Shown: one piece after another, positions 23,217 to 43,288 of the stretch | How the letters are laid out: every line of letters begins with the position of its first letter | How positions within the stretch are numbered: the first letter of the stretch is position 1 | Assembly: GCA_964594215.1 (NCBI GenBank) | Contig: CAZQLN010000005.1 | Coordinates: 2,475 to 66,474 of the forward strand | Length of the DNA stretch: 64,000 nucleotides | Source: an uncultured Bdellovibrionales bacterium | Lineage (GTDB): Bacteria; Patescibacteriota; Minisyncoccia; Moranbacterales; UBA1568 | Reading direction: 5' to 3' | The notes under the pieces: model-generated | The model's database searches: none | What the model saw: the letters and a program-made list of their open reading frames with translations, nothing else | What the model was told of the DNA's origin: nothing | Translations under genes and position numbers: made by a program

Positions 23217-24797
23217 TTACCATTGTTTCGGTAGAATCGGTTCTGTAATTAAGTCTGGCAAATACTCTGCCTTAAGTTCATAGATATCAGCGAATGGATA
23301 ATGATCTACAAGTTGATAATACTGAAATCCCGGATTATCTACCATAGCTCTCCAGGTAGAATCATCATTTGAATAGCTTCGAACCACAATCCATCTTGCC
23401 CAACGATCAGGGTTAGCTAAAGCGGCATCATAGTAGGCGCCAGCTCCTTCATGAATAAACTTTTTCATTGGTAAACCAGATGAGAAGATAACTGAGTCAT
23501 GAGAGGCTGCTGAGATAAGAACGAATCCGGGTTTATCTTTAGTATTTTCTCGTAACCAGCCAGATACCTCAGTTACATTTTTCTGACTCGATCCAACGCG
23601 TGCGTCATCGATAGTCACCGCATCCGCTGATGAAAACTGAAAAAAAGTCACAAAAGCCAACAATCCAATAATAGTTACGCCCAAAGGTCTTTTGACACGC
23701 CCCACGAGATATCCAACAAAAATAGCAATGGACGGCAACATCATGATGCCGTAACGTACATTAAACCAAGTATCTCCTGAAATACCCTGAATATAGAGCA
23801 CTGAGTGACCTAAGTAGAGTGCCAATATATTGAATAGGAAAGGCGCTATAAGAGCGCTACTGGCTATGCGAGCAGGAACGGAAATTTTTTTATCTAACCA
23901 AAGGAAAATGGCTGCCACAAAGCCAAGGAACATGGTGAAAGCTCCTGTATTATAGGCCATTGCATACATATAGACTTTAAGTGAGAAGAGCCAGTTCCCC
24001 TTACTTGGGAGCACTCCAGCTGCATTAAGTTGATCTTGTTGAGCATGGGCTGAGTATGGACCAAAGGCAAAGTATAGTGGATCCTTGAAAATAAGAAGGT
24101 TCCATAGAAGCCATAACACTACTCCTAGTCCAGCCAAAGTACAGAAAAAAATAAATATCCCTTCTGCTCGATGATACCCATATTTCTTAAAAGTATAGAG
24201 AGTAATAATGCTGGCCGCAAAGAAAAGCATAAACCAAGCATCATAGCGTACCAGCGTGGCTAGCATGATAAAAAAGGCTGAATAAATAAGATACAGAGAG
24301 TTTTCAGTCTTAAACCACCTCAAAAGATAATAAGCACCGACTGTCATAGTGCCAAGAAGTGTTAATTCTGTCATAGCTGTTGACTGTAAGTACAGCGTAT
24401 TTATATTCGCTACGAATATTGCTACTCCCACGAAACGACCGAGAAGCCCTATCCCTAATTCTTTCAGAAAAAGAGCAATAACAACTCCCGTCGCCACAAA
24501 GCTGATCATAGACCACAAGGCTCCAGCAAGGCCTGAATGCCACATAAAGTCATTCCAGATAGTCACTCCCATCAGTAAATGAGTGAGTGGCAGCCATACA
24601 GAACCGAGCTGCGCTGCTCCAGGGTTAAGATTTTCCACTACACGACGACCGATATCAAGATGTGATCGAGCATCATTATAGGCTAAACCTAAACCGTTTT
24701 GATAAAAATAGATGAAGGTGCCTATAGAAATTAAAGACAATGAAAAACTTATGATCCAAGAACTGTATTCTTCTATTGTTAGAATGATATTTTTCAT
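23217..24797 (-). CDS. GT-C superfamily membrane glycosyltransferase (PMT/ArnT-like, family 39/83-like)
   Basis: 526 aa, at least 10 transmembrane helices. First extracytoplasmic loop carries the acidic motif (YNDARSHLD). Large C-terminal soluble domain. Part of the glycan cluster. Confidence 0.55.
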   Translation of the reverse strand: MKNIILTIEEYSSWIISFSLSLISIGTFIYFYQNGLGLAYNDARSHLDIGRRVVENLNPGAAQLGSVWLPLTHLLMGVTIWNDFMWHSGLAGALWSMISFVATGVVIALFLKELGIGLLGRFVGVAIFVANINTLYLQSTAMTELTLLGTMTVGAYYLLRWFKTENSLYLIYSAFFIMLATLVRYDAWFMLFFAASIITLYTFKKYGYHRAEGIFIFFCTLAGLGVVLWLLWNLLIFKDPLYFAFGPYSAHAQQDQLNAAGVLPSKGNWLFSLKVYMYAMAYNTGAFTMFLGFVAAIFLWLDKKISVPARIASSALIAPFLFNILALYLGHSVLYIQGISGDTWFNVRYGIMMLPSIAIFVGYLVGRVKRPLGVTIIGLLAFVTFFQFSSADAVTIDDARVGSSQKNVTEVSGWLRENTKDKPGFVLISAASHDSVIFSSGLPMKKFIHEGAGAYYDAALANPDRWARWIVVRSYSNDDSTWRAMVDNPGFQYYQLVDHYPFADIYELKAEYLPDLITEPILPKQW

Positions 24798-24801
24798 ACG
24801 A

Positions 24802-26382
24802 CTAGACCTTATTATTGAAAAAGATCTCTCTAGCAGAAACCAGCCAAATTCCTAATACGAGAATCATGATAAGGGAGAATAAAACCTTATGGTATTCTTG
24901 AGCTGTCATATAATTCTTAGCCCAATTCTGGTACACAAAAGCCTTGGATCCCACACTTTCGTATTTTCCTTGAAGAAACTCCCAGTTACGCAAAAACGTA
25001 TACTTTTCTTCATGACCTGATTGCTCTTCAAGCGCTAATACCTGAACCTTTGGAGGATTGAGACTAGTGGTGACCGCTCCTAAACTATTAACCCAAGCAG
25101 AATAAGCAAAAAGTGGAAGGAGGGCGATGATTAACCACTTTCTCCACTCCCAGTAAGTAAGAGCCATGGCTATAGCTATTCCTAATAAAGCATAGCTTGG
25201 TATAAGATAACGCGACCCAAAAGCCCATCCGCCCCAAGGATCTCCCCACATAGAGTACAAGAGTGTATTTGTCCCAATAATCGCCACAAAAAGAGATGCA
25301 ACCCAAACGCTACGACGATACAGGACAAAAAGACCCAGAATACCAAAAAGGATTATTGGTGTGAAATAAAGAATCCCACGATCAGGACTAATAAAATGAA
25401 TAAAGAAGCCATTATATAGATTGCGTGTCTTAAAAAATCCTGTCGCTGTCTTTTGAGGCTTATCTTGGGATTGGGTACCTATTTGATCATACTTACTATC
25501 TACTATCGCCTCACCATGCTCACCTATATCATCCACTGCTTGTAAGGTTCCGGGTAATTGAAAAGGACTTCCATTGGCCATATTGTTATACCAACCCAAG
25601 AAAAGTATTGGCGGTATAACAACAGCTATCGTCAAAACAGTAAACACTAAACTTTTTAGAACTCGCTTCTGTTCATAACCTTCTATCAGTCTTTCTTTTA
25701 GGCTGAAGAGGGAAAAGATACCTACTGGAAGCATCAAGAAGATATTCGGATTATCTACAACTATCGAGATAGCACAAGAAAACCATACGATAGCCAAAGC
25801 AAAAAAACTTCTTTGGAAGCGCATCATCGCCCAAACAGAGATTAGTAAAAAGAACACTGTCATATGATGCTGATAAAGTTCTGATGCGTAGACAAAAGCC
25901 GGAGTTGCAAAAGAAAATGTCAAAGCACCTAGCAATGCCGCGCTTCTAGATGACTTAAGCTGCATTGAAATGGTATAGATGAGAACCAGATTTAAGATCG
26001 CAAAAAAGGCACTCGTAGCAAAAGCTCCTACTATAGAAACTCCAAACTCCTTCCCTATTAAATAGCCTGGTATAGCTAAAAATGATGGTCCTGGAGAAAA
26101 AAGTGAGACATACTTACCAGAAGAATTAACAGCTAAATCAGGAATCGCCAATCGAGCCACATCGAGGGAGAACTGCAATGAATGATCCTCAACAAAAGAG
26201 TAAAGGAGAGCTATCCTACCTCGCTCTGGTGATAATTCAAGTGGCCCATCCCAAGTCCAGTGCTTAGACTGAAGCGTTTTACTATCTGGATTTCCGTTTA
26301 TCCCTCGGATTGCCAAAGAGAAGATCACCACTATCAAAAATATCGATAGAACAATTAGTATTTTTTCTAATAATGACTTCAT
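24802..26382 (-). CDS. GT-C superfamily membrane glycosyltransferase (second tandem copy)
   Basis: 526 aa polytopic membrane protein with the same overall architecture as the adjacent gene. Confidence 0.55.
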   Translation of the reverse strand: MKSLLEKILIVLSIFLIVVIFSLAIRGINGNPDSKTLQSKHWTWDGPLELSPERGRIALLYSFVEDHSLQFSLDVARLAIPDLAVNSSGKYVSLFSPGPSFLAIPGYLIGKEFGVSIVGAFATSAFFAILNLVLIYTISMQLKSSRSAALLGALTFSFATPAFVYASELYQHHMTVFFLLISVWAMMRFQRSFFALAIVWFSCAISIVVDNPNIFLMLPVGIFSLFSLKERLIEGYEQKRVLKSLVFTVLTIAVVIPPILFLGWYNNMANGSPFQLPGTLQAVDDIGEHGEAIVDSKYDQIGTQSQDKPQKTATGFFKTRNLYNGFFIHFISPDRGILYFTPIILFGILGLFVLYRRSVWVASLFVAIIGTNTLLYSMWGDPWGGWAFGSRYLIPSYALLGIAIAMALTYWEWRKWLIIALLPLFAYSAWVNSLGAVTTSLNPPKVQVLALEEQSGHEEKYTFLRNWEFLQGKYESVGSKAFVYQNWAKNYMTAQEYHKVLFSLIMILVLGIWLVSAREIFFNNKV

Positions 26383-29139: not shown

Positions 29140-32100
29140 TTAGTATTCACTCTTAATAGCCTCCCAAAAAGCCATACTACTTTTCTCCCACGTGAAGTTT
29201 TCTGCCCACTCACGAGCATTATCCCCGAATCGCTTACGAAGATCATGATCCTTAATAACTGAGAGCATCGCCTCACTAAATCGAGCTACATCGCCATAGG
29301 GCACTAGATATCCAGCCTCTCCATCAAGCACTGAATCCCTGAGACCCGGAACATCTGATGCAATCACAGGTGTTCCACACATATTTGCCTCAATAACCAC
29401 TATGCCCCACCCCTCCATGAATGAAGGATTCACCAACATCCAAGAACTTTGTAGAAGTCTAACTTTTTCTTCATGAGATACCGCCCCCAGAAACTGCACC
29501 TGTTTATCATTAAAGCCAAGCTCTGCCGCTAAGCGTTTGAGATACTTCTTGTCATCACCATCACCAGCAATCACTAATATAGCCTCTGGTCGTGAGGATA
29601 GAACCTTATGAAAAGCCTGGATAAGAATGTTCACTGATTTGTAAGCTTTCAATCGACCAAGATAAAGAATCGTTGGATGAGTTGTCTTCTCTACAAATTC
29701 TCGAGTAAACTGAGTGGCATTAATACCCGGATGCACTATAGATATTCCCGCTTGTCCAAGATTTATATCCAACATTTCTTGTTTGCTCGATTCGGAGACA
29801 GTAATAAATTGTACATTTCTATACACTAATGGCATCAAGCCTTTTTCAAGAGTACTCGCCAACCAAGCAAGCGGTTTGGGTAAAGAATGATAGAAAACCT
29901 CTTGATGCACATGATGCATAAGACAGAAAAGTGGCTTACGCACATAGAGAGGTGTGAAGAATGGTATCCCATTCTCACAATCTATAACCACATCATACCT
30001 ATCTCTAAAACGAAGCATGTAGTAGAGAAAAGCCCAGAGATAAACAAGATAAAATCCTCCTCTACGGACAATGTTCACTCCGTCAATCGTCTCGAATCTC
30101 TCTTGTGTACCATCATTGCCGGAAAATACAGTCACATGATGACCTTCGACTACCCATGTTTTAGCAATTTCGTGAACGTACACTTCAGCTCCTCCAGCAA
30201 AACGATGGGTGGTATCCCGCCAATTAAAGATAAGTATTCTCTTGCCAGTAGTCACCAGGGGTTGGGCTTTTAGTAAGCCATTTGTGAACACTCCCAAAAA
30301 ATCCCGTAAACCTCGCCCCAAAAATCCTATTCGTATACCAAAGAAATGCATTGCTGAAAAGATAACTAGGCCAGCCAAACTAGTACCAAAAATAATATCA
30401 ATGATGTCTCTGAATTCATCGTGATCAAACCATATGCTTGTAATCACAACCAAAGAAAGTCCTAGAGAAACAAACGAAAATGAATACTCTCTTTTTGCCA
30501 AATGGTAAGTTACGAGAACACTCGAAAGTGTGAACAGGGCGATACTAAGAGTATAGAGAGGTAACCAACCTACTATCTCTCTTGCCTTCTCTCCAAAAAG
30601 AATTGGGGCTGTAACAAAACCGAAAACACCTAGAATAAGGACCCCTAAAGTAACTAAAATAAGAACGCTAGAGAAAATGGTGGATAAAATCTTCTCAGAA
30701 CCCTGTTTCAAACCATCTTTGAAGCTCACTAGAGTTACCATGAAAACCATCGGCAAAGCTCCAAGAAAATAAATCATCTTACCCGCCAATGAAAGTAAGG
30801 CGTACTGACCAGACTGAGTTTCATTGAAAAAGTGCTTCACCAGAAGAACATCTACACTAAGGAATAGAATAGTCGAAAGACTTACCGCCATTGATGAAAA
30901 GAGAAATGCAAACGGAAAAGAGACTATCTCTTCTGTGTGAACCTTGTCTTGGCTTACTTCAGGAGATATCTTCTTATACATTAACCAGACAACTACACTC
31001 CCTACACAAGCGGCTGTCATCAAAGAGAGCGGGATAGACAAATATACCCATTCAGGATGACTCGAATAGACAAAAAGAATGGCTAACAACAGCTTAGTCA
31101 CAGCCTCTGCTAACATCACTACTGCTGCCCAAAAGAACCGAAGACTCCCCTTGAGAAAACCCTGAAAAGCATAGGAGAGAAAACCAAAGATGATCACTGG
31201 TGTAAAAAATAGCAGCACCGCCATATCTTGCACCTTGAAGAAAGACATCAGGAAGGGAGCTGTAACTATCCAAATGAATGAAACTAGCGAAACTGTATAA
31301 AGTGCATACCGTAAACCCCTTTTGAAGAAAGTCCACATTGCCTCTCTCCCCTTCTGAGCAAGAAGATACGATACTCGATGATTTGTTGTTGAAGCGAAAC
31401 TGTTTACAAAAATAGTTGTTATAAACCAAAGTGTATTTACAAAAATCACCAAATTTAGCTCAGAAAATGAAAGAACTCTACCAAGAAAAGCATTGAAAAT
31501 AAAATTCAAAAAATTACCGACAACCATAGCTCCGACCAAAAACCCTTTATTAGAAAAAATAAAGTGGAGATGCTGCTTTGGTATAAAGTTTGGAGCATAG
31601 CTTATAAGAGCCTGCCTAGCGTGCACCCAACGCTGTTTCGAACTCCAGTATTTCTCCTTATCTTTAGTTTTCTCCTTGACAATATGTAGCCCGTGATTCG
31701 TTTTCTCCCAATAATGTGGCTTTACAAAAAGCTGGTATGCCGCAATAGCTGCTGCAATACTGACCATCAGCCAATACAATGGAACCACGAAAACATACTT
31801 GATAAGCCAAAAATGTCCTCTCCTCGCACAACCAATCATGTAGTAATAAAGGTACAAAAAGTTCCCAAAGATTAGCGAAACAACTGCCATGTAAAATATG
31901 ACCTGGGGGAAAAGAGCATGAATAGCATCCCCTATAAAAGCATAAAAAACAAAGTAGGAAATCGTTGTGATCCAAAGCAATGGATTAATAACCATAAAGG
32001 CAATCTTACCTCCAACCACAAGCTGAAAGACTAATGCATGCAAACCATTTTCACGGGCAAACAGAAATGGATTGCGCATGTGTACTAGATACGTTTGCAT

Positions 32101-33843
32101 ATATCCCTTGATCCAGCGAGAGCGCTGCCGTAACCAATTTTTCCAATCACTATTCGCCTCCTCAAGTGTTACTGAATCAATCACAGCGGTTCGGTATCCT
32201 CTTTTAAAAAGACGTACTCCAAGATCACAGTCCTCTGTTACGTTAAACGGATCCCATCCCTGCAGTTCCAAGAGCTTCTTAGTCCGAAAATGATTACTTG
32301 TTCCACCGAGTGGAATGGAAGTGTTAATCGTCTGAAGACCTGTCAAAATAACATCGAACCATAATGAGTACTCTGCCGTAAAAAGACGAGTCAGCATGTT
32401 CTGATGAGGATTGAAATAATTTAGTTTAGCTTGGAGACACTGGACTTCTGGACCACTTTTTTGAAATGCCAGAAAGGCTTTTTTTAGTTGAAATGGATCT
32501 GGAATATCTTCAGCATCATAAATCACTGTATATTCACCTCGTGAGACCGATAAACCATAGTTACAAGCTTTTGGTTTAGTCTTAGGCATGGAATGAGGCA
32601 CTACTACAATACGCACATACGAAGGTAGTCCCATTTCTTGGGCAGCGATGACTGTTTCTTGATCATTTTCCTCTAAAAGCAAAAGGACATCGAGTTTAGC
32701 CTTAGGCCAATCGAGCTTCTCAATGGCGTCCATAAAATGAGGTAGCATATGAGCCTCCTTATAGAGTGGACAAAGGATTGAGTATAGTGGTAAATCTTTC
32801 TCATTCAAAGCTGCTAACTCTTCTTCTGTACTACATAACTCTGGTGGCGTTTTCAAACTTTGCAATACTAGTCCAAGATTGAAAAATACGTCTATAAAAT
32901 AGAGGGTTGTGATAAAAGCAAAAAAGGCTATCCCCGTGTGGAGTGGTGTTATGATAAGACCAAGAATAAACAGTCCCACTAGACTCAAGAGAAAAACTTT
33001 CTGCCATGGAATGAAGGTCTCAAGAGCAGAAATATCATGATGGAGAGTGGTGTGAGTAACAAAACGTGTCCGATTATGTGCAATACCTGCACCATGCATT
33101 GAATCTTTGGACTCTGGATGAATGAGTAGTGGTGGCCGACCCTGATATTTCAGTTTAAGAGCGCTCCAACCTATCTCAAAAATAGCTTTCAGCGGACTTA
33201 ATTTTGATGATCCAGCTAATCTCTCAGAAAAATTTATATCTACCGTACTAATCACATACCCGTAATTCCTCGCTGAGAGCAAGAACTCCATATCAAATGT
33301 CCAGGGTGTTGGATCGAGAATCACTTCACGTAGAATCTTCTTACGAAATACTTTAAGTCCAGATTGACTATCACAATCAAGATCGTGTAAGAGTCGAGCA
33401 AAAACGAAGCTGAATGACTTACTAAGGAGTGCCCGAATAAACTGAGTATCATGCGTTACCCTGTTAGCAACGACGATATCAGATCCCGCAAACAACTTCT
33501 CTACCATCTCTGGGATAGCTTCCGGTGGATACTGAAGATCTCCATCAATCATCACTATGGATTCATAAACTGCATATGAGAACCCCTCAATTAGTGATTG
33601 GGCTTTACCAGAGTGACCCTTCTTAGAAAAAAAGTGTACCTTGAAATAATCCTTATACTTGAGAGCTGCTTCCTGAATAACCTTTCGAGTATTATCAATG
33701 GAGTGATCATCTATAAAAATAACCTCTCCTTCGTAAGAGGCTTTTACAAAAATTTCCTGAACTCTTTCCAAAAGAGCCAGTATATTCCCCTCTTCATTGA
33801 GGACTGGGACAACAATAGATACTTGCTTCGCTCTCATAACCAA
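29140..33843 (-). CDS. 1567-aa multidomain polysaccharide synthase: GT2 (DPM1-like), transmembrane region, processive GT2 (QxxRW), MOP/Wzx-like polytopic domain, GT4
   Basis: N-terminal IVVPVLNEEGNI...IDDHSIDNT. Second GT2 with YDAEDIPDP and QRSRW motifs. About 450-aa region with at least 12 transmembrane helices resembling Wzx/polysaccharide-biosynthesis flippases. C-terminal GT4 with EGWGIVVIEANMCGTPVIASDVPGLRDSV (E-x7-E). Confidence 0.8.
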   Translation of the reverse strand: MVMRAKQVSIVVPVLNEEGNILALLERVQEIFVKASYEGEVIFIDDHSIDNTRKVIQEAALKYKDYFKVHFFSKKGHSGKAQSLIEGFSYAVYESIVMIDGDLQYPPEAIPEMVEKLFAGSDIVVANRVTHDTQFIRALLSKSFSFVFARLLHDLDCDSQSGLKVFRKKILREVILDPTPWTFDMEFLLSARNYGYVISTVDINFSERLAGSSKLSPLKAIFEIGWSALKLKYQGRPPLLIHPESKDSMHGAGIAHNRTRFVTHTTLHHDISALETFIPWQKVFLLSLVGLFILGLIITPLHTGIAFFAFITTLYFIDVFFNLGLVLQSLKTPPELCSTEEELAALNEKDLPLYSILCPLYKEAHMLPHFMDAIEKLDWPKAKLDVLLLLEENDQETVIAAQEMGLPSYVRIVVVPHSMPKTKPKACNYGLSVSRGEYTVIYDAEDIPDPFQLKKAFLAFQKSGPEVQCLQAKLNYFNPHQNMLTRLFTAEYSLWFDVILTGLQTINTSIPLGGTSNHFRTKKLLELQGWDPFNVTEDCDLGVRLFKRGYRTAVIDSVTLEEANSDWKNWLRQRSRWIKGYMQTYLVHMRNPFLFARENGLHALVFQLVVGGKIAFMVINPLLWITTISYFVFYAFIGDAIHALFPQVIFYMAVVSLIFGNFLYLYYYMIGCARRGHFWLIKYVFVVPLYWLMVSIAAAIAAYQLFVKPHYWEKTNHGLHIVKEKTKDKEKYWSSKQRWVHARQALISYAPNFIPKQHLHFIFSNKGFLVGAMVVGNFLNFIFNAFLGRVLSFSELNLVIFVNTLWFITTIFVNSFASTTNHRVSYLLAQKGREAMWTFFKRGLRYALYTVSLVSFIWIVTAPFLMSFFKVQDMAVLLFFTPVIIFGFLSYAFQGFLKGSLRFFWAAVVMLAEAVTKLLLAILFVYSSHPEWVYLSIPLSLMTAACVGSVVVWLMYKKISPEVSQDKVHTEEIVSFPFAFLFSSMAVSLSTILFLSVDVLLVKHFFNETQSGQYALLSLAGKMIYFLGALPMVFMVTLVSFKDGLKQGSEKILSTIFSSVLILVTLGVLILGVFGFVTAPILFGEKAREIVGWLPLYTLSIALFTLSSVLVTYHLAKREYSFSFVSLGLSLVVITSIWFDHDEFRDIIDIIFGTSLAGLVIFSAMHFFGIRIGFLGRGLRDFLGVFTNGLLKAQPLVTTGKRILIFNWRDTTHRFAGGAEVYVHEIAKTWVVEGHHVTVFSGNDGTQERFETIDGVNIVRRGGFYLVYLWAFLYYMLRFRDRYDVVIDCENGIPFFTPLYVRKPLFCLMHHVHQEVFYHSLPKPLAWLASTLEKGLMPLVYRNVQFITVSESSKQEMLDINLGQAGISIVHPGINATQFTREFVEKTTHPTILYLGRLKAYKSVNILIQAFHKVLSSRPEAILVIAGDGDDKKYLKRLAAELGFNDKQVQFLGAVSHEEKVRLLQSSWMLVNPSFMEGWGIVVIEANMCGTPVIASDVPGLRDSVLDGEAGYLVPYGDVARFSEAMLSVIKDHDLRKRFGDNAREWAENFTWEKSSMAFWEAIKSEY

Positions 33844-34037: not shown

Positions 34038-36155
34038 ATGCGGTTTAAAACTCTTCTTCTTTCTATCCTTTTCCTCATTCCTCTTGTTTTGGGAGTGCTC
34101 TTCGTTGGCTTTTTCCTCTTCTATGTTCCTTCTGTTAATGACTTCACCGATGTCGTCCGCGGTGAGACCTCAGTACTCTATGATCGTACCGGTGAACATG
34201 TACTCTATCAGATTCATGGCGAAGAAAACCGTAAACCCCTTAAACATGATGATATCCCCAATGCTATTCGCCTCTCTACTATCGCCATCGAAGATGAGAA
34301 CTTTTACAACCACCATGGTGTTGATCCGCGAGCCATCTTTCGAGCCCTGCGAGTCAATATAGAAGAAGGTGGTTTCGAACAAGGTGCCTCTACTATCACT
34401 CAACAATTAGCTCGTAGCGTCGTTTTGAGTCGAGAAAAAACTATAGAACGCAAAGTGATAGAAGCTCTCCTGGCTCTCAAGCTTGATTTTTTCTTAAGCA
34501 AAGAGGATATCCTTGATCGCTACCTCAACCAAGTTCCTTACGGATCCAATGCCTATGGCGTAGAAGCGGCTTCAGAAACCTTTTTCGACAAGCCGGCTCG
34601 TGATCTTACTTTGGGTGAGTCCACTCTCTTAGCAGCTCTTCCTAATGCTCCGACACTCTATTCTCCTTATGGCAATAATCAAAACGCGCTCGTGAAACGC
34701 CAACAGCTCATCATCGAAAAACTTCTTACCAATGGTTGGATTACCAAAGACGAAGCTCGAGCGGCTATTAATGAAAATGCTCTCCAAAAAATAGTTCCTC
34801 TTAAAAGAGCTATCACTGCTCCTCATTTTGTATTTGCAGTACTTGAAGAACTAGAACAAGAATATGGTCGCGATACTCTCGAACAGGAAGGTTTGCATAT
34901 CTATACCACGCTTGATCTAGAGGCTCAACAAAAGGCTGAAGCTGCGGTCCAAAAGGGAGCTACTCGCAACCTCGCCTGGAATGCTAGCAATGCTGCCCTA
35001 GTAGCACTTGATGCGGAAAAGGGTGAGATTTTAGCTATGGTAGGCTCCAAAGACTACTTCAGCAAGGACATCGATGGCAAGGTTAATGTCGCCATGTCAC
35101 CGAGACAACCAGGTTCTTCTTTCAAGCCACTCGTCTATGCCACCGCCTTTGAAAAGGGCTACCAGCCCGAAACCATGCTCTTCGATCTCCCCATGAGCTT
35201 CGGTCCTGATGGTCAGGGCAAGGAATATGAGCCTCAGAACTACGATGGTAAAACCCATGGTCTCATCTCTATGCGCCAGGCTCTCTCAAACTCTCTCAAT
35301 ATTCCAGCTGTTCAGACCCAATACCTAGCTGGTGTTGATAATACCCTAAACCAGGTCACTCGCATGGGTCTTACTTCTCTGGGTGACAAGAATCGCTATG
35401 GTCTTTCCCTTGTCCTTGGAAGTGGTGAAGCAAGCCTTTATCAAATGGCCAATGCTTACAGTGTTTTTAGTCAGGAAGGCCTCTATCAAAAAGCCTCTGG
35501 GGTGCTCCGTGTTGAAGACCGTGACCATAAGGTCGTCCAGGAGCATACTATCCGTCCAGAGCGTGTTTTAAGCACAGAAACAGCTCGTAAGATTAGCTCT
35601 ATCCTCTCTGATAACAAGGCACGTTCTATGGTTTTTGGTAGCAACACTCCCCTCGCCTTCAAGGATGGCAGTGTCGCTGCTAAAACGGGCACTACTCAGG
35701 AGTTTCATGATGCCTGGACGCTCGGCTTTACCCGTCGCGTCGCAGTAGGTGTCTGGGTAGGCAATAATGATAATACCGCTATGAAAAGTGGTGCTGATGG
35801 CGTCTTCGTGGCTGCCCCTATTTGGCGAGACTACATGGATTACCTCCTCACCCGCTTTCCAGCTACTAGTTTTACAGAATACCAAAAAGTCGAAAGTGAT
35901 AAACCCCTTCTTACGGGTAACACCCTCTTTAAGACAGAAATCTTTGAATCAGCTCCCCAAAACAGCAAAGAGCGAAGAGCTCGTAAAAAAGAACTTCGCC
36001 GTGCAGCTCAAGAGCTACATAGTATTTTGTATTACGTAAACCGTGATGATCCGTTGGGTCCAACCGAGCCCGACAGGAGCGACCCTATGCTTGCTCGTTT
36101 TGAAGCCGCTCTTGGTCAGAACCAAGATAACCTCTTCAATCAACCAAAAAACTAG
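34038..36155 (+). CDS. class A penicillin-binding protein (bifunctional GT51 transglycosylase/transpeptidase, PBP1A-type)
   Basis: GT51 motifs EDENFYNHHGVDP, GASTITQQ. Transpeptidase SSFKP (SxxK), SNS, KTGT. N-terminal transmembrane anchor. Confidence 0.9.
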   Translation: MRFKTLLLSILFLIPLVLGVLFVGFFLFYVPSVNDFTDVVRGETSVLYDRTGEHVLYQIHGEENRKPLKHDDIPNAIRLSTIAIEDENFYNHHGVDPRAIFRALRVNIEEGGFEQGASTITQQLARSVVLSREKTIERKVIEALLALKLDFFLSKEDILDRYLNQVPYGSNAYGVEAASETFFDKPARDLTLGESTLLAALPNAPTLYSPYGNNQNALVKRQQLIIEKLLTNGWITKDEARAAINENALQKIVPLKRAITAPHFVFAVLEELEQEYGRDTLEQEGLHIYTTLDLEAQQKAEAAVQKGATRNLAWNASNAALVALDAEKGEILAMVGSKDYFSKDIDGKVNVAMSPRQPGSSFKPLVYATAFEKGYQPETMLFDLPMSFGPDGQGKEYEPQNYDGKTHGLISMRQALSNSLNIPAVQTQYLAGVDNTLNQVTRMGLTSLGDKNRYGLSLVLGSGEASLYQMANAYSVFSQEGLYQKASGVLRVEDRDHKVVQEHTIRPERVLSTETARKISSILSDNKARSMVFGSNTPLAFKDGSVAAKTGTTQEFHDAWTLGFTRRVAVGVWVGNNDNTAMKSGADGVFVAAPIWRDYMDYLLTRFPATSFTEYQKVESDKPLLTGNTLFKTEIFESAPQNSKERRARKKELRRAAQELHSILYYVNRDDPLGPTEPDRSDPMLARFEAALGQNQDNLFNQPKN

Positions 36156-36682
36156 TTGGTATCTACTTGATCTTCTTTCGCTAGCTTAAGAGAGTTCTGA
36201 TAAAGACCTTTGATTTCAAAAATGAGGAAAAGGATGAGGCCAATTTTTAGGAGTGTCAGTGGAAACCAAACCTGCTCCCGGCAAGTATCAAACACTAGCC
36301 ACTCAAGGAGGAAGAAGGCTGTAATCAAAGCTTCAAAACGCCAATAACGGATACTTCTGTACAGACGATACTGCTCTCTTAGGTTAAAAACCATGAGCAA
36401 AACGTAGATAAAAATAAGCAATACCCAAACATCTTTAGGGAGCGCTTTGCAGAGAGATATCTCATGCACCACATCACCAGTAGCGACTACCATAACCGCT
36501 CTCCCATCGATAGAGCCAGATTTTGGTTGCTCAGAAAGGGTGGGCACTGAAGTTACTTCTCGGGTAGGATCTGCTATTGGTGAAGCATTTAAAAGTGGTA
36601 CTAACTCAAGAAAAAGCAGAGCTCCCAAGGGAATCAGAAAGGTAGCTATTGTTTTGCGTGAAAAAGTGGTTGTTATCATCAT
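36152..36682 (-). CDS. hypothetical membrane protein (last gene of the sortase operon)
   Basis: Signal/transmembrane N-terminus plus 3 C-terminal transmembrane helices. No recognisable domain. Confidence 0.4.
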   Translation of the reverse strand: MMITTTFSRKTIATFLIPLGALLFLELVPLLNASPIADPTREVTSVPTLSEQPKSGSIDGRAVMVVATGDVVHEISLCKALPKDVWVLLIFIYVLLMVFNLREQYRLYRSIRYWRFEALITAFFLLEWLVFDTCREQVWFPLTLLKIGLILFLIFEIKGLYQNSLKLAKEDQVDTN

Positions 36683-37356
36683 AGTGTTTCTGGTGAAGTA
36701 ACCTGATCAGCGATAACTAGGAGTCTCTTATACGTGGTACCCGCTGGCCAACAAGTCATAAGGGTAAGGGTTTTTTCTTTGACCTTCTTATTGATATACT
36801 CTACCTCACTCTGGTCCACAATCTTTGTCTCTCGAACCGTGTAGAGGTATTTCTGACCCTTATAGAAGATGTCTATCTCATCTCCCGCTTCGAGCTTACC
36901 TAAAAGATAGAACTCGGCATTGTAGCGAACCGCCTCATAGAAGTCAACTCCTGAGTGAGAAAAGAGAAACATGTTACCAACCATGTTAGGCGTGCTCGTT
37001 CCTTTGGCATGAGCCACACCCGTCTGAAGAGCCTTCTGGTAGAGAGGTTCATTCTGCCAGTCTATATCAGCATGGATTAAGCTGTTGGCTCGAATCTTAG
37101 GGATAACAATCCCAAACTCCTTATCTTTCGGTATCAATACCTCTTCAGCTGATATACCCTGGTTTTGTGACAAAGCCTCAGCTTGTGTTTGTACTTTTGG
37201 TAGACCACTACGCTCGGTGTAATAGCCAATTTCTTGTACCAAAAGAGGAAAGAAGGTAGCGATAATGATGAGTAGACCTACCGCTACCAAACTCCCTCCG
37301 AGGAAAGTACGCCAATCCTTAATCATTCTTTGTAAGAATGCTCTTTGGTCGTACAT
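36679..37356 (-). CDS. sortase (transpeptidase, TLxTC active site)
   Basis: N-terminal transmembrane anchor. Catalytic TLTLMTCWP (TLxTC Cys) and upstream His (FLFSHSGV). Immediately downstream of the LPATG substrate gene. Confidence 0.8.
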   Translation of the reverse strand: MYDQRAFLQRMIKDWRTFLGGSLVAVGLLIIIATFFPLLVQEIGYYTERSGLPKVQTQAEALSQNQGISAEEVLIPKDKEFGIVIPKIRANSLIHADIDWQNEPLYQKALQTGVAHAKGTSTPNMVGNMFLFSHSGVDFYEAVRYNAEFYLLGKLEAGDEIDIFYKGQKYLYTVRETKIVDQSEVEYINKKVKEKTLTLMTCWPAGTTYKRLLVIADQVTSPETL

Positions 37357-38299
37357 AGAAGAAATAATAGAGAATACCGCCGATAATCAGAAGGATGAGG
37401 AATATTGAACCCTTATTGTTTTGGGCCCAGTTGGAAATGCCTGCCTGATCTTGAGATTCATCTTTGGTCATTTCACCAAGAACTCCTTGATCTCCAGCTC
37501 CTTCAGTAGTCGCACCTTCAACAGTACCGCCCTGACCTTCTCCAGTACCTCCACCAGCTACTGGAATAGCTCCGCTTCCACCGCCATTACCTGACTGTCC
37601 ACTTACAGTAGTTGTTTTAGTCTTAGTCTTATGGATGGTATCAGTATTTACTGCTCGATCAGCGACAAAACCGGAAGCATTCCCATTGGCATCAAGAGCT
37701 CGAAGAGCGTACCAATAATCTTCATTACAGTCTGGCGGTGTGGTACTAATATAGCCATTCTGATTTGGTCCTATATCAAGAGTGGTGATAGGTGTATCAG
37801 CTACGAAGTCCTTGGCTGTTGAACGATAAAGTTCTACCTTTACTGTTTGACCGTCATTGGCGGTAGTAAACGTAATCTTATCATCACAAGTAGCCTCATC
37901 ACGATCGTAATTATACGGTGTACCTGGGAAAGTTCCATCAAAAGCTACATTGACGGTTTCGCTCTGGATAGGTAAATCCCCTTCTGCTTCAGCTGTCACA
38001 TAGAAAGAGTAATTACCGTCAGTTGGCATAACACCTGAGTTCACCTGACAATCTCCTGAGCTTCCTCCATCAATAAGCGGGATTGTCTGGAAAAGTCCGC
38101 CGGTTGTTTCGTAGCAACGAACAGTCACTGCTCGTCCTTCAGTATCAAGAGCTACAAAGCCGATCTTGAAGTTCGGAGTAGTAACAAATGCATCTGGCTT
38201 TTCTATTTCCAGCGCTAATCCTGGACCAGCCGCCATTACCTGATGACTACCAAGAAAAGTAGCTCCCGCTAATAACGCTCCAAGAAAAAGCATTTTCAT
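37319..38299 (-). CDS. possible separate secreted protein (signal peptide MKMLFLGALLAGATFLGS, Ig-like region, Gly-rich linker, C-terminal transmembrane anchor) in frame behind the LPXTG signal
   Basis: ATG-AAA-ATG at 38299. Signal-peptide-like N-terminus directly after the sorting-signal tail. C-terminal transmembrane GSIFLILLIIGGILYYFFYV. A GGAG lies about 16 nt upstream. Confidence 0.4.
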   Translation of the reverse strand: MKMLFLGALLAGATFLGSHQVMAAGPGLALEIEKPDAFVTTPNFKIGFVALDTEGRAVTVRCYETTGGLFQTIPLIDGGSSGDCQVNSGVMPTDGNYSFYVTAEAEGDLPIQSETVNVAFDGTFPGTPYNYDRDEATCDDKITFTTANDGQTVKVELYRSTAKDFVADTPITTLDIGPNQNGYISTTPPDCNEDYWYALRALDANGNASGFVADRAVNTDTIHKTKTKTTTVSGQSGNGGGSGAIPVAGGGTGEGQGGTVEGATTEGAGDQGVLGEMTKDESQDQAGISNWAQNNKGSIFLILLIIGGILYYFFYVRPKSILTKND

Positions 38300-41200
38300 A
38301 GATGTTCGTCTGCTCCACAGAAGACTCATGCCAGCACCAAGAAGGACAAGAGCTAAGAGGAGAATCCAACTATTCGCTCCAGTAGCTGGAAGACCTGTGG
38401 AGGCTCCTAAGACCCTGGTTTTACGCTCAGTATCGCGGTCTATCTCTTTCTTATTATCTGTATCGATGTTAGCGATTGGATCAACTACTGGCGTAGCTAC
38501 AGCTACCTGAGTTCCCACGAAACCAGTTGGATCATTAGCTAGAACATCACCACCACCCTGTGCATTACCTCGAGCATAGGCAAGATCTTCATAGAGCCCA
38601 TCGTCCTGAGAATCAGATATTCTAGCCTGATACTTGAGAGTTACCGTTTCACCTGGAACAAGGTTACCGACACTCCACACACCTGGTGAAGCATACTCAT
38701 GAGAAAGCTCAAGAGGTCCATCATGAGATCCTCCAAGGCTAGAGGTGGCTTCTGCACTGCCTGGCACATACTCAAAGCCCTTTGGTGGAAGATCGGTTAC
38801 CTCTGTATCAAGAACTGTATTTTCTTCTGCTTCCACGGTAAGCGTATAGATTACAAAGTCACCTGGAGCTTGAGTATCAATAACGTCAACACTCTTAGTC
38901 AGTCTTAGTACTGGAGTAATATTATGATTACCGAAAGTACAATTAAGTTCTTCGCCTGGCTCAAGGGTTGTACCTGGAACATCTACTGCAATTAATCGAT
39001 TTAATTGAAGTTCATTATTATCCGTAAGAATCTCTTCAATTTGCGTTCCACAAGTATTGAGAGTTTGTTCCCAACCCTCTTGGAGAACCTCTCGAACTAC
39101 ATAGTTACCAGGAATAAGATCCGTGAAGGTATAGGTGCCGTCCTCACCCGTAACTCCTGATGGCTCACCTTCGTCTAGACTGCCGTTATTGTTCAGATCA
39201 AGATATAAAGTCCAGCCAGCAAGCCCTGGTTCACCCTCATCTTGTTTGCCATTACCATCAGCATCAGAGAATTTATAGCCAGTAATGGTTCCTGTTTTTG
39301 CCACGTTCCAAGCAACACAGTAATAGGTATTACCGTTTTGTGGATTACCTACCCAATCCCAGTTGTCATAATTGACTACATCATTGTGACAATAAATTTC
39401 AGCACTCACCGGATTGGCATTGTTCTCTCCACCAGGAAGATTAAAGGTAAATGGAATGAAGCTATCCTTGTAGACTTCACGGAACCAAAGTTTTGGTGAG
39501 TTATCAGAATTTGGAATATCCATAGTCACCTGACCGCTGCCATTAGTGAAGTCTGAAGTGGTCCAACCAGCTCCCCCTAAAGCAACATTGTCTCCCTGAT
39601 GTGGCGTGCCATCATAACTCCACTGGAACTGCCAATCTGGTGCTAGACTACAACTTTTGTGGGTTTCTACCCAGTCAGCTGCTGTAGTGGCTGTAATATC
39701 TGGTCCTCCCTCTCCATAATTAGGAAGGTCAGCTTCGTTGGTACAGACGATTTTGGTAGCTACTACATGGACTGGTGGCTTATCATTATTAGTGATGGTA
39801 CAGGTGCCTACTCCTCCAGATGGAACAACCACTTCGCTACAATTATTAGACTCACCAGACTGATAAGTCGTATCATAGAGTGAATCAGCTACTTCGGTCA
39901 CGTTATACGTACCAGGAGTGACTTCTATCTCATTGACACCATCTTCATTAAAGGCAACTGCTTCAGCACCATCAATTTGGAAAGAAAAATCCTGAACTCC
40001 CTTTTGTTGGCCACTATCATTAACAAGATTCTTTACAATTCTTAGTGTGCCTTTCTTAGGGGCGTTCCAAGCAACACAATAATATGTCAAATTATCGTCA
40101 CTTGCATCAATAAAATCATAGTTATCGTAGTTCACTACGTCATTATGACAATACATTTCAGCACTCACGTCATTGCTATTTGGGTTTTCACTATCCTGTC
40201 CATACGTGAAAGGAATATAATTGTCATTCCATACTTCACGTACCCACACTAAAGAAGAGCTTTTCAGATCAACCTCAGCACTTGTCTCTCCATTGATACC
40301 TGTTGGTCCAAAAGTGTGCCAATCGCTGCTTGCCGACTCTCCCGTATTGTCACCGGGATTATTCGTACTATAGTAAGACCATTGGAATTGCCAATCTGAT
40401 TTGAAACTACAACTCTCATGAGTGTTTACCCAATCAATAGCAGTGGTCTTTGTAATGTCTGGCCCTCCGATTTCTCCGTAATTTGGAAGATCAGCCTCAT
40501 CGGTACATACAATTTTCGTGGCAACAATTTTAGCTACTTCTTGATTTTTAAATACACATCTCACTGTCTTACCTGACTCTACTTTAATAGCATTAGGTGA
40601 ACTCTCACCATCACAAACTACGCTCTCCAAGCGCCAGTCTGCTTGAGGCAACTCTTCTACTGAGTAGGTTCCCGGTGCCAAATCAAAACTAAGAGAATCA
40701 TTATCTGCTAATGAGAAATTCTCTCCCCAACTCGGACTAAAAGAAAACTCGTCTTGACTACCGTCTGGATCCGTCTGCTTTTCGATAGTGATCTTGCCCT
40801 TCTCTGGAGCGTTCCAAGCAACACAGTAATAGGTATTACCGTTTTGTGGATTACCTACCCAATCCCAGTTGTCATAATTGACTACATCATTGTGACAATA
40901 AATTTCAGCACTCACCGGATTGGCATTGTTCTCTCCACCAGGAAGATTAAAGGTAAATGGAATGAAGCTATCCTTGTAGACTTCACGGAACCAAAGTTTT
41001 GGTGAGTTATCAGAATTTGGAATATCCATAGTCACCTGACCGCTGCCATTAGTGAAGTCTGAAGTGGTCCAACCAGCTCCCCCTAAAGCAACATTGTCTC
41101 CCTGATGTGGCGTGCCATCATAACTCCACTGGAACTGCCAATCTGGTGCTAGACTACAACTTTTGTGGGTTTCTACCCAGTCAGCTGCTGTAGTGGCTGT

Positions 41201-43288
41201 AATATCTGGTCCTCCCTCTCCATAATTAGGAAGGTCAGCTTCGTTGGTACAGACGATTTTGGTAGCTACTACATGGACTGGATTGATTCGATTAGTGATA
41301 GTACAAGTCTCTTCTTCAAGAGCAGGTATAGTCAAATTGGTACAATTATCATAACTTGTTTCGTAGCCAGGAGCAGCAACTTCCGTAACAGTGTAAGTAC
41401 CGCCCGCTGGTACCTCTATATCGTTCTGGCCATCGACTGCGTCAAAGGCGGTCGTCTCTCCATCATTTACTTGGAAAGAAAAATCCTGAAATTGTTTAGA
41501 ACCAAGATTACCATTCTCAATAACCTTTTTGACATGGAGAATTCCGGGTTTTTGGACATTGGTAAAAGTACATGTAATATGTTCTCCCGAGTGGAGATTG
41601 AAGGATACCGTATTTCCTTCTTTTAGACCCAGAGAGGCTTCTCCGTTATCACAACTTAGTGTCTCTAATTGCCAAGATGCCACTTCTTCCTCAGAAATTG
41701 AATACTCTCCAGGAAAAAGATTCTGAAAACTCTTAGTGTTAGAAAGTTGATTTTGATTATCTCCATCATCATCAAGCGTAAATACTCCTTGCTCGTGACC
41801 AGTTATCGTAAAATTAAAATCTTGCGTACTATCAGGCTGTGCATCTTTAATAACGGTTATAGAACCCTTACTTACAGCATTACTAAAGGTGCAGACTGTG
41901 GTACTACCAGCAGAAACCGTAGCTACTGCACTCAGTGTATTTTCTACTTGGGTACAATTAGTTACCTGTGAAAGGTTGTATCCATTTGGACCACTTTCTG
42001 TCACTGTATGTTGACCTAAGCTCACTTGGCCAAAATCTACTTCACCACTACTGTTAGCTTGAATAGGGACTCCATTATCAAGCTGGAAACTCCACTGAGT
42101 CAAGAGCGATTGATCATCCACTATCTTTATTGCCTTTAAGCCGCCCTGAGCCACACACTTATTCTTCAAGATAGCCTCACCTTCTGTGGTCCAGTTTTTA
42201 CCAGGAAAACTTCCCCCGTAATAATTAAATGGTGGAATAATATCAGCATCATGCTGATCATTGTGTCCATTTAAGGCACCGTCATCATCAGTGGTAATCT
42301 CATTATAACCATTGGCTGCAGTGTCAGGAGGCGTAGCATGACAAAGTGTCACTGGAACATGCTCTACTTCATCCTTTTTAAATGAAACAAATACTGTGAA
42401 ATGGTCTAAATTTGAAGCTTCTACACTATCTTTGTCGTTAGAAATATCTTTCTTTTCAACACTTTTAAGATCCCCTCTCTCTAAATTTTTTCCCTTTATC
42501 TCATCTACTTCTTTTTCTATGTATGCAATACCAACATTTTTACCATCTTCTTTTGGAAGAGAAAGGTTGTACTTGAAATCACCATTTTTCATCCCATCTG
42601 TAGTAATGTCATAGGCATAAGGAGAAGCGCTCACCATACCTTGGGGCAACTTGATATCTTCCACATTAATTTGCTCTATCTTCAGATGAGCAAGCCTGCT
42701 TTCATCAGCTGGAAGACACTTAAAAGTGACTGTCACGTCTTTGTTATCTGGGAAAGTATATTCTACTCCAAGTTTCACATTTTCCTTTGTTTCAGCCTTT
42801 TTCCCATCATCACTGATATTCCAATCAGCATCCGTGGTCTTGGTGACTTGTTCAGTACTGGCACAAATTTCTCCATCAAGAGAATCCTGAGAAGAGCCTT
42901 CTTCGACAGCCTTCTTATCTTCTTCAGCGGTAGCTTGCTCACTATCATTAGGAGGGGTGACTTCTTCAGATGGTTCAGAGATAGCTGGGGTCTCCTCTGG
43001 GGTGACAGGGGCAACCTCCGCAGCTGGAGACACTTCTTCAGATGGAGTTTCTTCTGGTACTACTTCTTCTTCTTTAGGTGTAGCTTCTTCCTCTGGAGCC
43101 GGCGCTGGTTCTTCAGTCGGTTCAGTCTCTTGTGCTACTACCTTGGTTGGTACAGAAAAAGCAAACGCCCCAAGTAAAATTGGAGCAGCCATCGGTTGCA
43201 TGATTAAAGAGAGAACAACGCTGAATGAAAAAGTTTTTTGGAGACAAGGCAGCACACCCTTCCTTATCACCCTTCGGAATGAGTTCAT
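37319..43288 (-). CDS. giant repetitive LPXTG cell-surface adhesin, continuous in frame with a downstream secreted protein (1989-aa ORF)
   Basis: Signal peptide, acidic Pro/Glu-rich stalk. Multiple prealbumin/CnaB-like and SdrD-B-like (DADGNGKQDEGE) domains. Three copies of an about 157-aa domain. A DUF11-like domain. LPATG sorting signal at 38378-38392, then hydrophobic segment and RRTS. The ORF does not stop there. Confidence 0.8.
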   Translation of the reverse strand: MNSFRRVIRKGVLPCLQKTFSFSVVLSLIMQPMAAPILLGAFAFSVPTKVVAQETEPTEEPAPAPEEEATPKEEEVVPEETPSEEVSPAAEVAPVTPEETPAISEPSEEVTPPNDSEQATAEEDKKAVEEGSSQDSLDGEICASTEQVTKTTDADWNISDDGKKAETKENVKLGVEYTFPDNKDVTVTFKCLPADESRLAHLKIEQINVEDIKLPQGMVSASPYAYDITTDGMKNGDFKYNLSLPKEDGKNVGIAYIEKEVDEIKGKNLERGDLKSVEKKDISNDKDSVEASNLDHFTVFVSFKKDEVEHVPVTLCHATPPDTAANGYNEITTDDDGALNGHNDQHDADIIPPFNYYGGSFPGKNWTTEGEAILKNKCVAQGGLKAIKIVDDQSLLTQWSFQLDNGVPIQANSSGEVDFGQVSLGQHTVTESGPNGYNLSQVTNCTQVENTLSAVATVSAGSTTVCTFSNAVSKGSITVIKDAQPDSTQDFNFTITGHEQGVFTLDDDGDNQNQLSNTKSFQNLFPGEYSISEEEVASWQLETLSCDNGEASLGLKEGNTVSFNLHSGEHITCTFTNVQKPGILHVKKVIENGNLGSKQFQDFSFQVNDGETTAFDAVDGQNDIEVPAGGTYTVTEVAAPGYETSYDNCTNLTIPALEEETCTITNRINPVHVVATKIVCTNEADLPNYGEGGPDITATTAADWVETHKSCSLAPDWQFQWSYDGTPHQGDNVALGGAGWTTSDFTNGSGQVTMDIPNSDNSPKLWFREVYKDSFIPFTFNLPGGENNANPVSAEIYCHNDVVNYDNWDWVGNPQNGNTYYCVAWNAPEKGKITIEKQTDPDGSQDEFSFSPSWGENFSLADNDSLSFDLAPGTYSVEELPQADWRLESVVCDGESSPNAIKVESGKTVRCVFKNQEVAKIVATKIVCTDEADLPNYGEIGGPDITKTTAIDWVNTHESCSFKSDWQFQWSYYSTNNPGDNTGESASSDWHTFGPTGINGETSAEVDLKSSSLVWVREVWNDNYIPFTYGQDSENPNSNDVSAEMYCHNDVVNYDNYDFIDASDDNLTYYCVAWNAPKKGTLRIVKNLVNDSGQQKGVQDFSFQIDGAEAVAFNEDGVNEIEVTPGTYNVTEVADSLYDTTYQSGESNNCSEVVVPSGGVGTCTITNNDKPPVHVVATKIVCTNEADLPNYGEGGPDITATTAADWVETHKSCSLAPDWQFQWSYDGTPHQGDNVALGGAGWTTSDFTNGSGQVTMDIPNSDNSPKLWFREVYKDSFIPFTFNLPGGENNANPVSAEIYCHNDVVNYDNWDWVGNPQNGNTYYCVAWNVAKTGTITGYKFSDADGNGKQDEGEPGLAGWTLYLDLNNNGSLDEGEPSGVTGEDGTYTFTDLIPGNYVVREVLQEGWEQTLNTCGTQIEEILTDNNELQLNRLIAVDVPGTTLEPGEELNCTFGNHNITPVLRLTKSVDVIDTQAPGDFVIYTLTVEAEENTVLDTEVTDLPPKGFEYVPGSAEATSSLGGSHDGPLELSHEYASPGVWSVGNLVPGETVTLKYQARISDSQDDGLYEDLAYARGNAQGGGDVLANDPTGFVGTQVAVATPVVDPIANIDTDNKKEIDRDTERKTRVLGASTGLPATGANSWILLLALVLLGAGMSLLWSRRTSMKMLFLGALLAGATFLGSHQVMAAGPGLALEIEKPDAFVTTPNFKIGFVALDTEGRAVTVRCYETTGGLFQTIPLIDGGSSGDCQVNSGVMPTDGNYSFYVTAEAEGDLPIQSETVNVAFDGTFPGTPYNYDRDEATCDDKITFTTANDGQTVKVELYRSTAKDFVADTPITTLDIGPNQNGYISTTPPDCNEDYWYALRALDANGNASGFVADRAVNTDTIHKTKTKTTTVSGQSGNGGGSGAIPVAGGGTGEGQGGTVEGATTEGAGDQGVLGEMTKDESQDQAGISNWAQNNKGSIFLILLIIGGILYYFFYVRPKSILTKND
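39304..39775. repeat. 472-bp perfect intragenic direct repeat, copy B, inside the adhesin gene
   Basis: Identical at nucleotide level to 40810-41281 (offset 1506 bp). Encodes an about 157-aa domain (VHVVATKIVCTNEADLPNYGEGGPDITATTAADW...YYCVAWN). A diverged third copy lies between them. Confidence 0.85.
40810..41281. repeat. 472-bp perfect intragenic direct repeat, copy A
   Basis: Identical to 39304-39775. Confirmed both by duplicated antisense ORF peptides in the track and by direct nucleotide comparison of the junctions. Confidence 0.85.

Follow-up and report, generated by a model that had tools for sequence, protein, structure and literature searches.

The canonical sorting signal of sortase substrates, as set out in the Schneewind model, lies at the extreme C-terminus of the protein, where an LPXTG motif is followed by a hydrophobic helix of about 20 residues and a basic tail, with the stop codon right after. 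In the polyproteins of enveloped RNA viruses such as the Flaviviridae, an internal signal sequence, cut by the host signal peptidase, comes after a stop-transfer helix. Elements of both kinds come together in the gene considered here, which lies in a 64,000-nucleotide stretch (the window) of contig CAZQLN010000005.1, from an uncultured bacterium assigned to the Patescibacteriota in GTDB, and which has an LPATG sorting signal in the middle of a 1989-residue open reading frame (ORF; 37319..43288, minus strand, as are all window features located below) that continues without a stop into a second, internal signal peptide and a tandem-FN3 module. In the candidate phyla radiation (CPR), sortases have been reported to be enriched, and near-ubiquitous in the Microgenomates, although their substrates were not described (Méheust et al., PMC6744442). 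Another CPR surface system, the Pam pilus, includes the protein PamR, for which a tandem of FnIII domains (RbmA-like) and a C-terminal membrane helix are predicted, and which has been proposed as a membrane tether (bioRxiv 10.64898/2026.03.03.709456).

The product of this ORF, for which an exact-sequence look-up returned no identical record, consists of an adhesin, an internal sorting signal, an internal signal peptide and a tandem-FN3 membrane protein. The putative N-terminal secretion signal (residues 1-52; 43133..43288) was judged by eye from the translation, by its basic n-region, its long hydrophobic stretch and the end KVVA↓QE. It is followed by the adhesin passenger (residues 53-1632; 38393..43132), in which the Pfam domains SpaA_4 (477-578), three copies of SpaA_2, SpaA/SdrD_B (1335-1417) and DUF11 (1461-1561) were found, and by these domains the N-terminal 1663 residues have the make-up of a typical adhesin of the Gram-positive type. 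The LPATG motif (residues 1633-1637; 38378..38392), which has VLGAST just before it, as is also the case in relatives, precedes the first hydrophobic helix (TM1, ANSWILLLALVLLGAGMSLLWS; residues 1638-1659; 38312..38377), 22 residues long and modelled as a helix, and then the positive tail RRTS, a succession that recurs in 28 related loci. A motif scan of the 64-kb window found no other LPXTG motif with a hydrophobic segment after it.

This sorting signal does not stand at the C-terminus of the protein, as 326 in-frame codons come after it. No stop follows RRTS: the codons ATG-AAA-ATG (38299-38291) open MKMLFLGALLAGATFLGSHQVMAAGP, and the frame runs from RRTS into MKMLFLGALLAGATFLGSHQVMA↓AGP and then the 326-residue module. 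The basic loop RRTSMK (38294..38311), which has a net charge of +3, holds the ATG at 38299 and is predicted to be cytoplasmic, has two roles, providing the sorting signal with its charged tail and the second signal peptide with its n-region. This signal peptide begins at ORF residue 1664, not at an N-terminus, and is completed by the h-region MLFLGALLAGATFLGS (TM2) and the small-x-small c-region HQVMA↓A (together 38231..38293), with a predicted signal peptidase I site at VMA↓AGP. Beyond it lie a first FN3-like beta-sandwich (module residues 28-120; 37940..38218) with the conserved pair Cys62/Cys84, a second one (module residues 129-213; 37661..37915) with the conserved pair Cys138/Cys191 and the motif YYYAIRA.D..GN.S, a predicted disordered linker rich in Thr, Gly and Glu (37412..37660), and, up to and including the stop codon, the C-terminal membrane helix GSIFLILLIIGGILYYFFYV with the basic tail RPKSILTKND (37319..37411). 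The original prediction had described an LPATG in mid-frame running without a stop into a second signal peptide, and behind it an Ig-like protein of about 325 residues with a Gly-rich linker and a C-terminal anchor of its own; every one of these elements is in place at the positions it gave, the second protein having 326 residues, two beta-sandwiches, a linker rich in Gly, Thr and Glu and a terminal helix with a basic tail.

The conservation of the join was assessed in 45 loci from an alignment scan, with one genome per GTDB species, and two more found by exact look-up, of which 46 were informative. No stop is present between the sorting signal and the second module in 28 of the 46, where the sorting signal is likewise internal, the window being the 29th case. 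In the closest independent assembly (L003, 77% amino acid identity) the junction reads NRRTSAKMLFLG in an open frame of 1911 residues, and in five of the seven closest homologues of the second module, the signal peptide is preceded in the same frame by LPXTG, helix and basic tail, with a junction sequence that differs from one homologue to the next. At the DNA level, the junctions of the window, L003, L001 and L004 are only 68% identical, with gaps of 3 or 6 nt. Given that divergent junctions in independent assemblies keep the frame, with insertions and deletions in multiples of three, the join is to be regarded as a genuine feature, attributable neither to chance nor to an assembly artefact.

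A profile search of 1.84 billion cluster representatives (50% identity) found 1293 members of the module family at E<=1e-3 and 499 at E<=1e-30; judging by source names, the family appears to be confined to Patescibacteria. About 139 representatives, taken from the 150 matches listed and the earlier homologues, were classified: at least 80 hold the module at the end of a protein of 400-3000 residues, behind a recognizable LPXTG-helix, 12 more are long proteins with a slightly atypical helix or a degenerate motif, and 47 are stand-alone. Among the classified matches listed, the fused form therefore emerges as the majority architecture of a large family.

The anatomy of the junction is also kept among relatives. 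It was compared in 28 junctions with a recognizable motif, i.e., those of 27 related loci and the window, the fused locus L007, which has no canonical LPXTG, being left out. In all 28, the LPXTG is followed by an uncharged helix (20-26 residues), a loop of net charge +3 to +7 (4-17 residues) and another uncharged segment (13-24 residues). A set of 81 fused representatives has LPxTG in 76 cases, MPxTG in three and LAxTG in two, with a loop of 3-23 residues (median 10) and a net loop charge of +2 to +8. When the sequences before the mature module are aligned on an invariant Pro, the consensus (A/V)-x-A↓A-x-N-L-S-V-R-L-E-Q-P-K-S-P-T-N is obtained, whose A/V-x-A↓A has the form of a standard signal peptidase I site, 8-10 residues ahead of the first strand, LSVRLEQP; stand-alone homologues start with a Met at this signal peptide. 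The junction fits the positive-inside rule as a putative helical hairpin, in which the first helix would run from outside to inside, the basic loop would be cytoplasmic and the second helix would run from inside to outside. The AlphaFold2 (AF2) model of the junction has a helix at 44-61, a five-residue turn at 62-66 and a helix at 67-85, and then a beta-sandwich.

A sub-clade with a degenerate motif was also seen, in which the LPXTG is replaced by VLGAATGT..W, VLGAITGT or LAATG (L007 at about 6850-7000, P0052, P0092, P0140, P0152 and P0153), and L007 still has a sortase gene directly after the module. In this sub-clade the sortase may tolerate Ala at the Pro position, as in the class E-like LAXTG, or cleavage may have been lost.

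In 18 loci, mostly labelled Gottesman-, Levy- and Collierbacteria, the adhesin and the second module are two genes. In 17 of these, the end of the LPXTG adhesin coincides with the beginning of the second gene, and in 10 of the 17 the two overlap, with the adhesin stop 8 nt past the A of the second gene's ATG. Many of the loci with this 8-nt overlap have the tail codons CGG-AGG-AAA (Arg-Arg-Lys), which contain the GGAGG Shine-Dalgarno (SD) site of the next gene; in L010, L015, L018, L021, L022, L027 and L032, the membrane-retention charges and the GGAGG are the same nucleotides, about 20 nt before the ATG of the second gene. In the window, the deletion of one base in ACA-TCT-ATG-A gives ...RRTL-TGA overlapping the ATG. 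By this comparison, the split and fused states stand one frameshift apart at what appears to be a translationally coupled junction, and the family illustrates clearly how a single frameshift, where stop and start overlap, can fuse two genes or part them. In the eighteenth split locus, L014, the adhesin frame is interrupted (at about 6890-7005) where ELPATG is expected, and the open frame that remains has NSHRGADEAW as its first residues and covers the 36 codons up to the stop; it is either a pseudogene with a frameshift or the result of a fault in the assembly of that genome.

Since the split orthologues encode the two parts separately, with a stop and a start of their own, the mature products of the fused gene would be two proteins, namely a sortase substrate and a secreted protein with a C-terminal membrane anchor. 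A comparison of orthologues for a stop between the RRTS and MKM codons had been put forward earlier, such a stop being named as a refutation. Orthologues with such a stop do exist, in a subset of more distant lineages only, the closest relatives all being fused; as these stop-bearing orthologues are ordinary overlapping genes, they show that the two parts are separable, not that the ORF of the window is an error. In a midpoint-rooted neighbor-joining tree, every deep branch bears fused forms and the split forms make up a single nested group, which is only suggestive as to polarity, such a tree being too crude to settle the ancestral state. A crude count, with approximate starts and with kinship ignored, put the share of ORFs with an SD-like motif before them at 13% in fused loci (12% in the background) and at 24% in split loci (11% in the background), a trend with clear exceptions (L038, L042, L002 and L016), and the replacement of SD-based translational coupling by fusion is a weak observation only.

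The second module was modelled by AF2 as two consecutive beta-sandwiches (residues 28-120 and 129-213, pLDDT, the predicted local distance difference test, about 90, range 88-97), each with its Cys pair, as expected of tandem FN3 domains, after which come a disordered linker (residues 221-286) and the terminal helix. It matched no Pfam or NCBIfam family, and its top Foldseek matches in the PDB are FN3 pairs (neogenin FN5-6, integrin beta4 and gp130; E about 2e-7), with RbmA at ranks 36 and 48. The C-terminus of the module is a plain helix with a basic tail and carries no LPXTG. At the mature N-terminus, a QPK motif has its Lys in 71% of 129 members and is shifted or absent in the clade of the window (EKPD, EDPD); a universal Lys acceptor of the pilin type was rejected on these grounds, as no Lys of the module is invariant. 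The motifs GAIPV.G and G.VLGE.T are conserved in the otherwise low-complexity linkers of the window and of L003-L046, and the latter may be set beside VLGA(S/A)T, which directly precedes the LPXTG in the adhesins. GAIPV.G was also tried as a second sortase site and discarded, given that the position equivalent to the Thr varies (S/T/N/I/A/G), that it lies 40-70 residues from the helix and that it is absent in the Dojkabacteria-like clade.

Within the adhesin of the window, two DNA repeats (39253-39552 and 40759-41058) are 92-100% identical over at least 300 nt, lie 1506 nt apart and encode an identical Cys-containing domain of about 155 residues (VHVVATKIVCTNEADLPNYGEGGPDIT...YYCVAWN), and a third, diverged copy of about 79% identity lies near 40114-40180. 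These repeats point to a recent internal duplication, and the assembly could have collapsed or expanded at them.

The end of the fused ORF is overlapped by 38 nt, in agreement with the original prediction, by a sortase gene (36679..37356; 225 residues; PF04203, E 8e-22). Its product has an N-terminal membrane helix and the residues of a sortase domain, with the His in FLFSHS, the catalytic Cys in TLMTCWP and the conserved Arg in YKRLLV. It stays below the NCBIfam cut-off of every named class from A to F (62.6 vs. 160 bits for class C, 52.5 vs. 165 for class D and 41 vs. 160 for class E) and matches class C/D/E sortases of the PDB weakly (E 3e-7 and weaker), and by these scores it counts as unclassified. 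A sortase gene stands directly after the second module in 43 of the 46 loci, the exceptions being two contigs which end shortly after the module and L008, where the sortase is 3.6 kb off; an LPXTG-type (or LAXTG-like or degenerate) protein is fused to the module or directly upstream of it in all 46. Gene order and domains thus describe what appears to be a conserved three-part cassette of the Patescibacteria, made up of an LPXTG adhesin of the SpaA/SdrD/DUF11 type, a membrane-anchored tandem-FN3 protein and a dedicated sortase.

The sortase stop is overlapped in turn by a gene for a predicted membrane protein of 176 residues (36152..36682), which matched no Pfam or NCBIfam family and is kept only in the closest relatives (L001, L003, L004, L006 and L007); it may be a lineage-specific accessory of the cassette, its membership being uncertain. 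PBP1A is encoded divergently beside the cassette in the window and in L001, and the window also encodes an N-acetylmuramoyl-L-alanine amidase, SpoIID, a DsbD-thioredoxin protein and a CAP-domain protein. The presence of these genes is consistent with a peptidoglycan wall and with extracytoplasmic disulfide formation.

Taken together, the anatomy and the comparison of loci make it reasonably likely that the fused gene yields a single Sec-translocated precursor, which passes through a membrane hairpin and is cut by sortase and by signal peptidase. The N-terminal signal would carry the adhesin across the membrane via Sec, the LPXTG helix would halt the transfer and RRTS-MK would stay in the cytoplasm. 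The next hydrophobic segment would then re-insert as a signal peptide in the N-in/C-out orientation, giving a hairpin of two helices, and the FN3 domains would be exported and held by the last helix. Two enzymes of the outer face may then resolve the precursor. The sortase encoded downstream would cut LPAT↓G and transfer the adhesin to an acceptor, most likely a peptidoglycan precursor, given that PBP1A and other wall enzymes are encoded alongside, and signal peptidase I would cut after VMA. The end products would be a sortase-anchored adhesin, a free tandem-FN3 protein on its own C-terminal helix and a hairpin remnant of about 50 residues. Fused and split forms could interconvert by a single frameshift at the junction, and both may persist because they yield the same mature products.

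The proposal of a sortase-processed polyprotein or stop-less fusion, from which this work started, is strengthened as regards the fusion, the join being conserved in deeply diverged Patescibacteria together with the LPXTG, the basic loop, the AXA-type site and the adjoining sortase; the processing itself we infer. The further suggestion that cleavage between T and G would separate the two products has to be amended, since the release of the second product also needs a signal peptidase, which had not been considered.

Several points weigh against the processing scheme. The AF2 hairpin is of moderate confidence (pLDDT 55-70), no signal peptidase gene was identified in the window and, to our knowledge, bacteria offer few natural cases of an internal signal peptide that signal peptidase I cleaves. 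The motif is degenerate (GAATG) in a small number of fused relatives, L007 among them, and cleavage by the sortase may therefore not be universal. In addition, a Met is present in the loop of 17 of the 28 loci and of 49 of the 81 representatives, where about 25% would be expected by a rough estimate from the typical frequency of Met. By this excess, many lineages seem to have kept or to use an internal start, possibly also that of the window, with its two ATGs.

The same enrichment of Met speaks for internal initiation, by which the second protein would be made mainly from its own ATG (38299 or 38293) and the read-through product would be a by-product of a lost stop, tolerated by the cell. This is unlikely, but it is also favored by the position of the two in-frame ATGs of the window, exactly at the n-region, and by the separate start of the second gene in split lineages. 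However, in nine of the 28 junctions, neither the loop nor the opening three codons of the second helix contain an ATG, GTG or TTG, and the loop lacks a Met in 32 of the 81 representatives. Where no start codon is present, the long protein is the only possible source of the second module, and the fused polypeptide must therefore be functional. The first ATG has already been lost in the closest relative, L003, which has GCC in its place. Furthermore, a junction with no stop offers no coupling of termination and reinitiation, and the long polypeptide would still be made and have to be handled by the membrane.

The initiation signals of the genome also tell against an internal start. SD-like motifs precede only a handful of the 37 genes of the window (GC 42%), whose upstream regions are AT-rich instead, as expected of an SD-independent lineage of the Patescibacteria, and the GC content ahead of the internal ATG is higher than in real start regions. 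A GGAG, which the original prediction had offered in support of an internal start, is indeed present, 13 nt before the ATG, but it carries no weight in a genome which is largely devoid of SD sites; the rarity of such motifs among the 37 genes, together with the 13-nt spacing, rules it out as a ribosome-binding site.

A more doubtful variant of the processing scheme concerns the acceptor, which could be the tandem-FN3 protein itself, with the carboxyl of LPAT joined to its new N-terminus or to the QPK lysine where present. The neo-N-terminus predicted after signal peptidase cleavage is A-G-P-G-L in the window and mostly Ala in the family. Such an acceptor would explain why the FN3 protein is always found between the LPXTG adhesin (46 of 46 loci) and the sortase (43 of 46). 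If this were true, the two cuts would amount, in the fused form, to an enzymatic cut-and-paste reaction which excises a membrane hairpin from inside a protein and leaves the adhesin covalently mounted on a membrane-anchored FN3 stalk, i.e., a sortase-built, membrane-tethered fibre of two proteins in bacteria with minimal cell envelopes.

It is still less probable that the precursor remains uncut, as a membrane protein of three helices, with vestigial LPXTG and AXA sites and with the hairpin as a lasting link between adhesin and FN3 module. The relatives with GAATG or GAITG show that the architecture can outlast a canonical LPXTG; against this, LPxTG is kept in 76 of the 81 fused representatives despite an overall identity of 30-40%, the sortase gene stays directly downstream in 43 of the 46 loci, the small-x-small consensus is maintained before the mature N-terminus, and split orthologues make two proteins. 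An error of assembly or sequencing, which the original prediction had allowed for as the cause of the missing stop, is scarcely credible, for although split orthologues exist and the removal of a 1-nt insertion from ACA-TCT-ATG-A would uncover an RRTL-TGA stop with the classic ATGA overlap, the same open frame recurs with differing junctions, whose length differences are multiples of 3, in the independent assemblies of L003, L001, L004, L005, L006 and more than 20 others, and about two thirds of the top-scoring classifiable cluster representatives are fused.

Elsewhere in the window, an ORF of 1567 residues (29140-33843, with a TTG start as listed) combines two GT2 glycosyltransferase domains, a MatE-like membrane region and a GT4/GT1 domain; behind it come a further GT2, a polysaccharide deacetylase and an APH-like kinase. 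The ORF encodes another very large fusion protein, in an apparent surface-polysaccharide operon. Two adjacent ORFs within the glycosyltransferase cluster (23217-24797 and 24802-26382), each of 526 residues and with no Pfam match, may be tandem paralogues.

A full-text literature search for an internal LPXTG followed by a signal peptide, for sortase polyproteins and for CPR sortase substrates found no description of such an arrangement, and the fused two-in-one precursor is apparently undescribed so far. Sortase substrates are defined, and found by software, through a C-terminal signal, a rule which is broken by a patescibacterial family with hundreds of clusters at 50% identity; given the internal signal and the signal peptide after it, annotation pipelines will mis-describe such proteins. 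If the processing takes place as inferred, the family would provide a natural bacterial polyprotein that is resolved by sortase and signal peptidase via a membrane hairpin, an arrangement otherwise familiar from viral polyproteins. The cassette of adhesin, FN3 anchor and sortase is, moreover, a strong candidate for host attachment in episymbiotic ultrasmall bacteria, and it gives a concrete, testable substrate for the unclassified sortases of the CPR.

As for its relation to known systems, the second module shares with PamR the tandem FN3 domains and the C-terminal helix in a CPR surface protein, and RbmA is among its fold matches. The Pam system, on the other hand, uses donor-strand exchange and chaperones, with no sortase or LPXTG, and no sequence relationship between the two was seen, none having been tested. 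The likeness to the Flaviviridae polyproteins lies in the topology, in which a helix running from outside to inside, a short basic cytoplasmic loop and a helix running from inside to outside, with a small-x-small site on the outer face, would turn one translation product into two exported proteins; here, however, the protein is that of a cellular bacterium, the predicted agent of the first cut is a sortase transpeptidase, which also attaches the product, and there is no homology.

Sortase-dependent pilus and adhesin clusters of Gram-positive bacteria (tip adhesin, small base pilin of Ig fold and dedicated sortase), of which the SpaA-type clusters of Corynebacterium are an example, resemble the cassette in its order of a large adhesin, a small two-domain protein of Ig/FN3 fold and a sortase; the adhesin of the window has prealbumin-fold domains of the SpaA type, and the N-terminal ...V.LEQPK... 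of its small protein recalls the YPK pilin motif. The cassette departs from these clusters in that the small protein has a plain membrane helix in place of an LPXTG and the Lys in 71% of members only, in that no shaft pilin is present, and in that the adhesin and the small protein are fused. With canonical LPXTG sorting, finally, it has in common a putative N-terminal signal peptide, the tripartite signal and a sortase with His, TLxTC and Arg encoded beside its substrate, and it differs in that the signal of the window is internal and is followed by a signal peptide and a 300-residue exported module with an anchor of its own, and in that the sortase falls below all class cut-offs. The feature works within the sortase system, rather than forming a new kind of system.

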